A DNA stretch of 64,000 nt from Escherichia coli. GTDB taxonomy: Bacteria; Pseudomonadota; Gammaproteobacteria; Enterobacterales; Enterobacteriaceae. The notes under the pieces were generated by a model. The model worked only from the letters and a program-made list of their open reading frames with translations, was not told the DNA's origin and made no database searches. The translations under genes were made by a program, and so were the position numbers. Location: the NCBI RefSeq assembly GCF_046105845.1, contig NZ_CP151004.1. One strand, given 5' to 3'. This document shows, one piece after another, positions 39,874 through 40,608 of this stretch (its first letter is position 1; every line of letters starts with the position of its first letter).

Positions 39874-39881
39874 TGTGATGC

Positions 39882-39912
39882 GGCGTAGACTCATGTCTAC
39901 GCCGTATTAATA
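39882..39912 (+). terminator. Hairpin downstream of fldA (probable terminator)
   Basis: GGCGTAGAC-tcat-GTCTACGCC perfect 9-bp stem, followed by GTATTAAT (weak U-run). Confidence 0.5.
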
Positions 39913-40082
39913 GATAATGCCAATCAAAATAATTGCTACAAATTTGTAACTTTTGCTGTTGTACCTGTACAATGTCCCGGTGTTCAAGTGGCCTTGCCGT
40001 TGTAAATGTAAGCAGTGCCACGTTTTTATTAACAATATTTGCCAGGGACTTGTGGTTTTCATTTAGGCGTGGCAATTCTATA

Positions 40083-40169
40083 ATGATACGCATTATCTCA
40101 AGAGCAAATTCTGTCACTTCTCCTAATGAAGTGAACCGCTTAGTAACAGGACAGATTCCGCATGACTGA
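40083..40169 (+). CDS. uof: uof, upstream ORF of fur (28-aa leader peptide, translationally coupled to fur)
   Basis: ATG at 40083 gives MIRIISRANSVTSPNEVNRLVTGQIPHD; its stop TGA overlaps the fur start region (fur ATG at 40162). Confidence 0.75.
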   Translation: MIRIISRANSVTSPNEVNRLVTGQIPHD

Positions 40170-40608
40170 TAACAATACCGCCCTAAAGAAAGCTGGCCTG
40201 AAAGTAACACTTCCTCGCTTGAAAATCCTGGAAGTTCTTCAGGAGCCGGACAACCATCACGTCAGTGCGGAAGATTTATACAAACGTCTGATCGATATGG
40301 GTGAAGAAATTGGTCTGGCTACGGTATATCGCGTACTGAACCAGTTTGACGACGCTGGTATCGTCACCCGCCACAATTTTGAAGGCGGTAAATCCGTATT
40401 TGAACTGACACAGCAACATCACCACGATCACCTGATCTGCCTCGACTGCGGCAAGGTTATCGAATTTAGTGATGATTCCATCGAAGCGCGTCAGCGTGAA
40501 ATTGCCGCAAAACATGGCATTCGCCTGACTAACCACAGTCTCTATCTTTACGGTCACTGTGCCGAAGGCGATTGCCGCGAAGATGAGCACGCGCACGAAG
40601 GCAAATAA
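40162..40608 (+). CDS. fur: Ferric uptake regulator Fur
   Basis: 148-aa ORF MTDNNTALKKAGLKVTLPRLKILEVLQEPDNHHVSAEDLYKRLIDMGEEIGLATVYRVLNQFDDAGIV... Confidence 0.98.
   Translation: MTDNNTALKKAGLKVTLPRLKILEVLQEPDNHHVSAEDLYKRLIDMGEEIGLATVYRVLNQFDDAGIVTRHNFEGGKSVFELTQQHHHDHLICLDCGKVIEFSDDSIEARQREIAAKHGIRLTNHSLYLYGHCAEGDCREDEHAHEGK

Follow-up and report, generated by a model that had tools for sequence, protein, structure and literature searches.

In this study, we relate a 19-nucleotide element upstream of fur in Escherichia coli to the promoters, the leader frame and the small-RNA target that surround it. The element, TATAATGATACGCATTATC, occupies positions 40079-40097 on the plus strand of the window (by which we mean the whole 64-kb stretch of DNA analysed), and it is very probably the operator through which Fur acts on the proximal, sigma-70-dependent promoter of fur (Pfur), in modest negative autoregulation. 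It is the already known Fur autoregulatory operator, so that its recovery here is a rediscovery, and an ordinary one. The autoregulatory iron box of E. coli fur (de Lorenzo et al. 1988, as cited in later papers) is the same element, with an identical 19-mer and the same overlap with the -10 region of Pfur. A first-pass annotation had placed a Fur-box-like 19-mer at exactly these coordinates, with the ATG of the leader frame uof (40083) inside it, and had offered an autoregulatory Fur operator as one explanation; the description and this explanation are both upheld by the consensus match, by the uniqueness of the site in the window and by published binding and reporter experiments.

The window carries the ybfE-fldA-uof-fur locus of E. 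coli, and the RefSeq gene order, taken from the annotation of identical E. coli genomes, is ybfF, ybfE, fldA, uof, fur, chiQ, chiP. Many complete E. coli genomes match the 351 bases around the 19-mer at 100% identity, and most of this stretch is present in 5,423 of 5,426 genomes. In the fldA-fur interval only two SNPs (40015 and 40123) separate the window from K-12 MG1655, and the 19-mer is identical. Published coordinates were converted as NC_000913.3 position = 750808 - window position, with a constant of 750031 for NC_000913.2, which agrees with the 51-mers and 5′ UTR lengths printed in the published start-site table. The features central to the argument are as follows.

40079-40097, plus strand: Fur operator ('iron box') of the proximal fur promoter, as assigned from consensus match, literature and start-site map; -13 to +6 relative to the fur transcription start
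40079-40084, plus strand: -10 hexamer TATAAT of Pfur (promoter scan), including the first two bases of the uof ATG
40056-40061, plus strand: -35 hexamer TTTTCA of Pfur (promoter scan), within the conserved block GTTTTCATTT
40092, plus strand: main fur transcription start (A), giving a 70-nt 5′ UTR (Kim et al. 2012, Table S1)
39944-39980, plus strand: Puof, the upstream uof-fur promoter, with TTGTAA at 39944-39949, an 18-bp spacer, TACAAT at 39968-39973 and a start at 39980
40083-40169, plus strand: uof, a 28-codon leader ORF (RefSeq 'fur leader peptide') whose stop overlaps the fur ATG
40162-40608, plus strand: fur coding sequence (RefSeq annotation)

The element matches the Fur consensus, GATAATGATAATCATTATC, at 16 of 19 positions; the three mismatches are T in place of G at position 1 and CG in place of AT at positions 11-12. 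No other site on either strand of the 64-kb window has three mismatches or fewer; dinucleotide shuffles predict 0.01 such sites, and the best random site in 30 Markov simulations of the window had four mismatches, none reaching three. Read as hexamers against GATAAT-like units, it consists of TATAAT (5/6), GATACG (4/6) and a perfect right arm, ATTATC (6/6), for which promoter function does not account. Given the TATAAT, 11 of the 13 remaining positions match the consensus, an outcome with a chance of about 2-3 in 100,000 per site by a rough hand estimate.

For calibration, we used nine classic Fur-repressed promoter regions of MG1655, each with a ChIP-exo peak. Their best sites depart from the consensus at three positions (fepD-entS, ryhB), four (entC/fepB, fecI, fiu), five (fhuA, cirA), six (fepA-fes) or seven (fecA), so that the fur 19-mer equals the best of the nine in closeness to the consensus. 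The iron-uptake Fur operators (fepD-entS, entC/fepB, ryhB, fhuA, cirA, fiu, fecI) share the 19-bp consensus with the fur box and overlap the core promoter likewise. They consist, however, of extended hexamer arrays at 6-bp shifts and have ChIP-exo peaks in MG1655, whereas the fur box is isolated and fur is without such a peak. In registers displaced by 6 bp to either side the fur box has 8-10 mismatches, as against 4-6 at strong Fur sites; the 6-bp-shifted matches have 3 and 4 mismatches at fepD-entS, and 3 and 5 at ryhB. Judged from its sequence, the fur box is an isolated minimal operator lacking flanking 6-bp-phased GATAAT arrays, and this isolation may be why occupancy and repression in vivo are weak.

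The mapped transcription starts fit this assignment. Pfur reads TTTTCA-17-TATAAT and matches at 10 of 12 positions in the promoter scan, with the start 7 nt 3′ of the hexamer. Four 5′ ends upstream of fur are recorded for MG1655 by Kim et al. 2012 (PMC3415461, Table S1).

709939(-) of NC_000913.2, window 40092: 46 reads; its 51-mer ends ...TATAATGATACGCA and its 5′ UTR is 70 nt
709876(-) of NC_000913.2, window 40155: 28 reads; 7 nt 5′ of the fur ATG
710051(-) of NC_000913.2, window 39980: 8 reads; upstream uof start
710082(-) of NC_000913.2, window 39949: 5 reads; minor upstream start

The first-pass annotation had named a comparison with mapped fur starts and Fur footprints as the way to check the operator reading. 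The main start lies inside the element, as is expected of an operator overlapping -10 and +1, and Fur binding is documented. Because the start at 40092 falls within it, the Fur box covers -13 to +6, an arrangement typical of repressors that occlude a promoter. The left arm of the operator doubles as the -10 hexamer TATAAT, and the right arm, CATTATC, covers the start at 40092. We infer from this geometry that metallated Fur, on binding the 19-mer, would occlude -10 and +1 and lower initiation at Pfur; binding in vitro and repression of reporters have been shown by others. Fur bound at this position might also act as a roadblock to transcripts arriving from upstream. A -10 element at CATTAT (40091-40096) was considered as well and was ruled out by the mapped start at 40092.

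The upstream promoter, Puof, is given as TTGTAA-18-TACAAT by Shimada et al. 2014, the same motif as found in our promoter scan, and its sequence is conserved among orthologous loci in the alignment. The uof ATG sits at -9 to -7 of Pfur, so that Pfur transcripts do not contain the uof AUG, and this codon can act as a start only on longer RNAs, from Puof (39980) or from the fldA/ybfE promoters. Since the start at 40092 (46 reads) outweighs those at 39980 and 39949 (8 and 5 reads), most fur-specific transcripts in the data of Kim et al. are without the uof AUG. The overlap of operator and leader frame is a by-product of a TATAAT followed by G, which spells TATA-ATG. Neither the short 5′ region (40091-40200) nor the long one (39980-40200) folded better than its shuffles (z -0.13 and -0.35, respectively). 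The 5′ end at 40155 lies downstream of the Shine-Dalgarno-like AGGA of fur, and could be a processing site or the product of a minor promoter (TAGTAA at 40141-40146). Further upstream, a hairpin at 39881-39903, just 3′ of the fldA stop, has the form GGCGTAGAC-TCATG-GTCTACGCC and is not followed by a T-run; its stem is preserved across genera by compensatory changes, e.g., GGCGCAGC...GCTGCGCC. These features would suit a hairpin that terminates transcription in part, or one that serves in stabilisation or processing, while still permitting fldA-fur co-transcription.

Published experiments bear directly on the operator. The exact 19-mer is named 'the Fur-box' of the fur promoter in two reports (PMC10318462; PMC11001641). 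In the first of these, a 110-bp fragment with the box (window 40062-40171, MG1655 sequence) was fully shifted by 1 μM [2Fe-2S]-Fur in an electrophoretic mobility shift assay (EMSA), while apo-Fur gave no shift of this fragment. In the second, a fur::gfp reporter with the whole intergenic region was repressed by approximately 2 μM iron in the wild type, and this repression was absent in an iscU mutant. Autoregulation by Fur is credited to de Lorenzo et al. 1988 and is described as moderate. The literature that we examined contains no operator point mutant of the fur box.

We scanned one genome per species for the Fur protein and recovered 80 Enterobacterales loci. Pfur is kept in all 80 as GTTTTCATTT, a spacer and TATAAT (TATACT in three Erwinia), and TATAATG is present in 72. 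In an alignment of 73 sequences selected on TATAATG, and therefore invariant at these seven positions by construction, A40086 shows no variation; conservation is 84-97% across ACGCATT (40088-40094) and only 51-67% at the 3′ ATC (40095-40097), and most genera have G at position 40087. Among the orthologous 19-mers, those of Escherichia, most Citrobacter, Salmonella arizonae, Enterobacter and other genera depart from the consensus at 3-4 positions, and those of several further genera of the order, including Buttiauxella, Pantoea, Erwinia and Hafnia, at 6-10. Promoter function also accounts for much of the consensus match. Conservation at two of the three non-consensus positions, C40089 and G40090, exceeds that at the 3′ ATC, which does match the consensus, so that Fur binding is not the sole constraint on the element and probably not the deepest. 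From these alignments, Fur binding is probably one constraint among several, with the promoter the deepest of them.

A complete uof of 28-30 codons, with the ending ...TGQIPHD, is found in the majority of the 80 loci, among them most of those from Enterobacteriaceae. Pantoea, Salmonella arizonae, K. oxytoca, Raoultella and Atlantibacter have a shortened frame of 4-16 codons, and the uof ATG is absent, while the promoter persists, in Trabulsiella, Pectobacterium and Dickeya (TATAATT) and in some Erwinia (TATACT). Several observations on the frame itself may be recorded here. Codon 14 (40122-40124) varies: the window has Pro (CCT), MG1655 and E. albertii have Ser, and a further E. coli genome has Phe. 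Conservation between genera is poor in the middle of the peptide, and the last ~13 codons are kept at the nucleotide level even in broken frames, which suggests that the 3′ part of uof may be constrained as the 5′ UTR and ribosome-binding region of fur rather than as peptide. A mini-ORF, AUG AAG UGA, lies at 40126-40134 in the +1 frame within uof, and shifted 16-codon versions of uof end at its UGA (...MK* or ...RK*) in Salmonella arizonae, C. sedlakii, Citrobacter sp. Awk 4 and Enterobacter sp. Bisph1. In loci of Buttiauxella, Dryocola and Enterobacter sp. R1 (L058, L059, L061, L064), the ATG of TATAATG, ~66-69 nt 5′ of fur, is in frame with fur and no stop intervenes, which gives a 22-23-codon N-terminal extension of Fur, e.g., MRRIHLNAHPESERIVKQQDNFR-MTDNN....

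Against this background, the element could be seen as essentially just the core promoter of Pfur, made up of the -10 and the initially transcribed region, with a Fur resemblance that is physiologically negligible and no meaningful regulation of the promoter by Fur in vivo. In vivo occupancy is indeed weak or inconsistent across published data. In a ChIP-exo study of nine strains (PMC10164565), the MG1655 table has no Fur peak between ybeQ and sdhC, and a uof,fur peak appears in only one of the nine strain tables, that of iron-replete KO11FL; an EcPfur::lacZ fusion in the wild type was unaffected by iron (PMC7867234). The conservation data lean in the same direction, as every one of the 80 loci keeps the promoter, whereas the 3′ ATC, critical for Fur, is eroded and orthologues range from 3 to 10 mismatches, and the non-consensus T40079, C40089 and G40090 are nearly invariant, T40079 being fixed by the sequence selection. 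Nevertheless, we regard this reading as improbable. It does not sit well with the binding of holo-Fur in vitro and the iron-responsive promoter reporter, nor with the 11 of 13 consensus matches beyond TATAAT, among them the perfect ATTATC. In addition, the KO11FL peak (4301615-4301627) maps to window 40097-40109, adjoining the 3′ end of the box. A second possibility is that the 19-mer owes its conservation mainly to a coding or translation-initiation constraint, as it contains the start codon of uof and the five codons with which the frame begins. RefSeq does place the start of uof at this ATG, and an N-terminal M-[I/R/K]-R-I is conserved in many genera, but the same nucleotides are kept where the frame is cut to 4-16 codons, the promoter survives loss of the ATG (TATAATT, TATACT), and no obvious Shine-Dalgarno sequence lies just 5′ of the uof ATG in the window. 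As the promoter is kept where uof is broken, uof coding does not explain the conservation of the element, and we give this account almost no weight.

The other explanation offered in the first-pass annotation was that the 19-mer reflects the sequence needed for RyhB pairing at the uof translation initiation region. This part did not survive. The RyhB sequence was confirmed by 100% matches in 5,424 genomes, a hit to Rfam RF00057 and the MG1655 ryhB annotation, and 30-nt sliding windows were scanned against RyhB nt 30-69, with shuffles. Unrestricted RNAduplex runs of full RyhB against 225 nt had produced meaningless long duplexes with large loops and were replaced by the sliding windows. Between this core of RyhB (nt 30-69) and the 19-mer, the best duplex reaches -4.7 kcal/mol, against -4.2 ± 1.7 in shuffles, 34% of which are at least as good, and complementarity of RyhB to 40060-40082 (-23 to -1 of the uof AUG) is not significant, with 13% of shuffles as good. 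Within 40070-40100, where the annotation had suggested looking, complementarity in the 19-mer is thus at chance level; the significant segment lies just beyond.

40101-40116, plus strand: RyhB-complementary segment AGAGCAAAUUCUGUCA, forming a duplex of -11.9 kcal/mol with RyhB nt 37-48 (equalled by 0.5% of shuffles)

This segment is 3′ of the box, in uof codons 7-12, and its G40104 and C40105 pair with RyhB C45 and G44, two bases whose inversion is reported to abolish repression of uof and fur. The uof-fur coupling under RyhB control (Vecerek et al. 2007, as summarised in later papers) concerns the same locus, where the ATG of the box is the uof start and the G44/C45 pair falls within uof. That mechanism acts at the RNA level and, on our duplex scan, through the adjacent segment 40101-40116, the 19-mer having no significant RyhB complementarity. 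It is true that reviews describe RyhB as blocking uof translation initiation, and that the main duplex can be extended on paper by a short helix between UGAUAC (40084-40089) and RyhB nt 60-65. A shaping of the 19-mer by RyhB is nonetheless extremely unlikely, given the chance-level duplexes of the element and of the -23 to -1 region, and a significant site elsewhere that holds the GC paired with RyhB G44/C45. Moreover, the box core is conserved where the RyhB-site region, which is poorly conserved in the alignment of the 80 loci, diverges, and where uof is truncated or its ATG missing. With the 19-mer taken as a Fur operator, RyhB acts on the separate adjacent segment 40101-40116, which both classes of mRNA contain. 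The location of this segment downstream of the start at 40092 agrees with a report that the short fur mRNA is targeted by RyhB 'at the same site'. As a separate observation, the best RyhB complementarity of the fldA-fur intergenic region is found at 39995-40028, in the 5′ UTR of the Puof transcript, against RyhB nt 30-63 (-17.7 kcal/mol; 2.6% of shuffles as good), and the SNP A40015 (T in K-12) falls within it.

A second Fur-like stretch had also been proposed near 39911-39934. The stretch, GATAATGCCAATCAAAATAATTGC, does exist, 2 nt away at 39913-39936, but as a Fur box it is weak.

39913-39931: second Fur-like 19-mer, GATAATGCCAATCAAAATA, with five mismatches, at approximately -67 to -49 of Puof and within a conserved block

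Two Fur-like sites with five mismatches were observed in the window where 0.9 are expected, and when the surrounding 205 bp of intergenic DNA are shuffled, five mismatches are reached in ~1% of cases; at those frequencies, the second stretch is weakly above chance as a Fur box. The block around it is conserved across genera as ATAG.TAA...C.AT..AA.TAATTGCTACAA.TTT.TAACTTT and ends at the -35 of Puof. By eye, 39910-39946 reads ATAG-N7-CAAT-N7-ATTG-N7-TTTG, which agrees at 11 of 16 core positions with the OxyR motif ATAG-N7-CTAT-N7-ATAG-N7-CTAT; Klebsiella, Raoultella and Kluyvera have ATAG in place of the ATTG. The published location of the OxyR site fits this conserved block. The second stretch probably belongs to the OxyR/Puof upstream region and is less likely to be a Fur site. 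An auxiliary Fur site was set aside as the primary reading, on account of five mismatches being near chance and of the position, which is that of an activator of Puof. A perfect 12-bp palindrome, TACAAATTTGTA, lies at 39937-39948, where it overlaps the Puof -35 (TTGTAA) in the most conserved intergenic block; it is possibly part of the OxyR site.

The geometry at Pfur raises one further idea. Since the ATG of uof lies within the operator, at -9 to -7 of this promoter, Fur occupancy may determine which type of fur mRNA is made and not just how much of it. Autoregulation would then work as a promoter-choice switch from one regime of translational control to another, which we consider unlikely. 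With Fur bound, fur would be expressed mainly from long Puof or fldA transcripts with a translatable uof; with Fur off, at low iron, the short 40092 transcript would dominate, lacking the uof AUG and retaining the RyhB site. Selective destabilisation of the short fur mRNA by RyhB has been reported.

In conclusion, the element represents textbook negative autoregulation of a global regulator, at a site in routine use in binding assays. Within 19 bp it is at once a -10 hexamer, an operator, a transcription start and the start of a leader ORF, as a consequence of which the most abundant fur-specific transcript cannot encode uof. This main transcript without uof deserves attention when the model of uof/RyhB coupling is applied to total fur mRNA.
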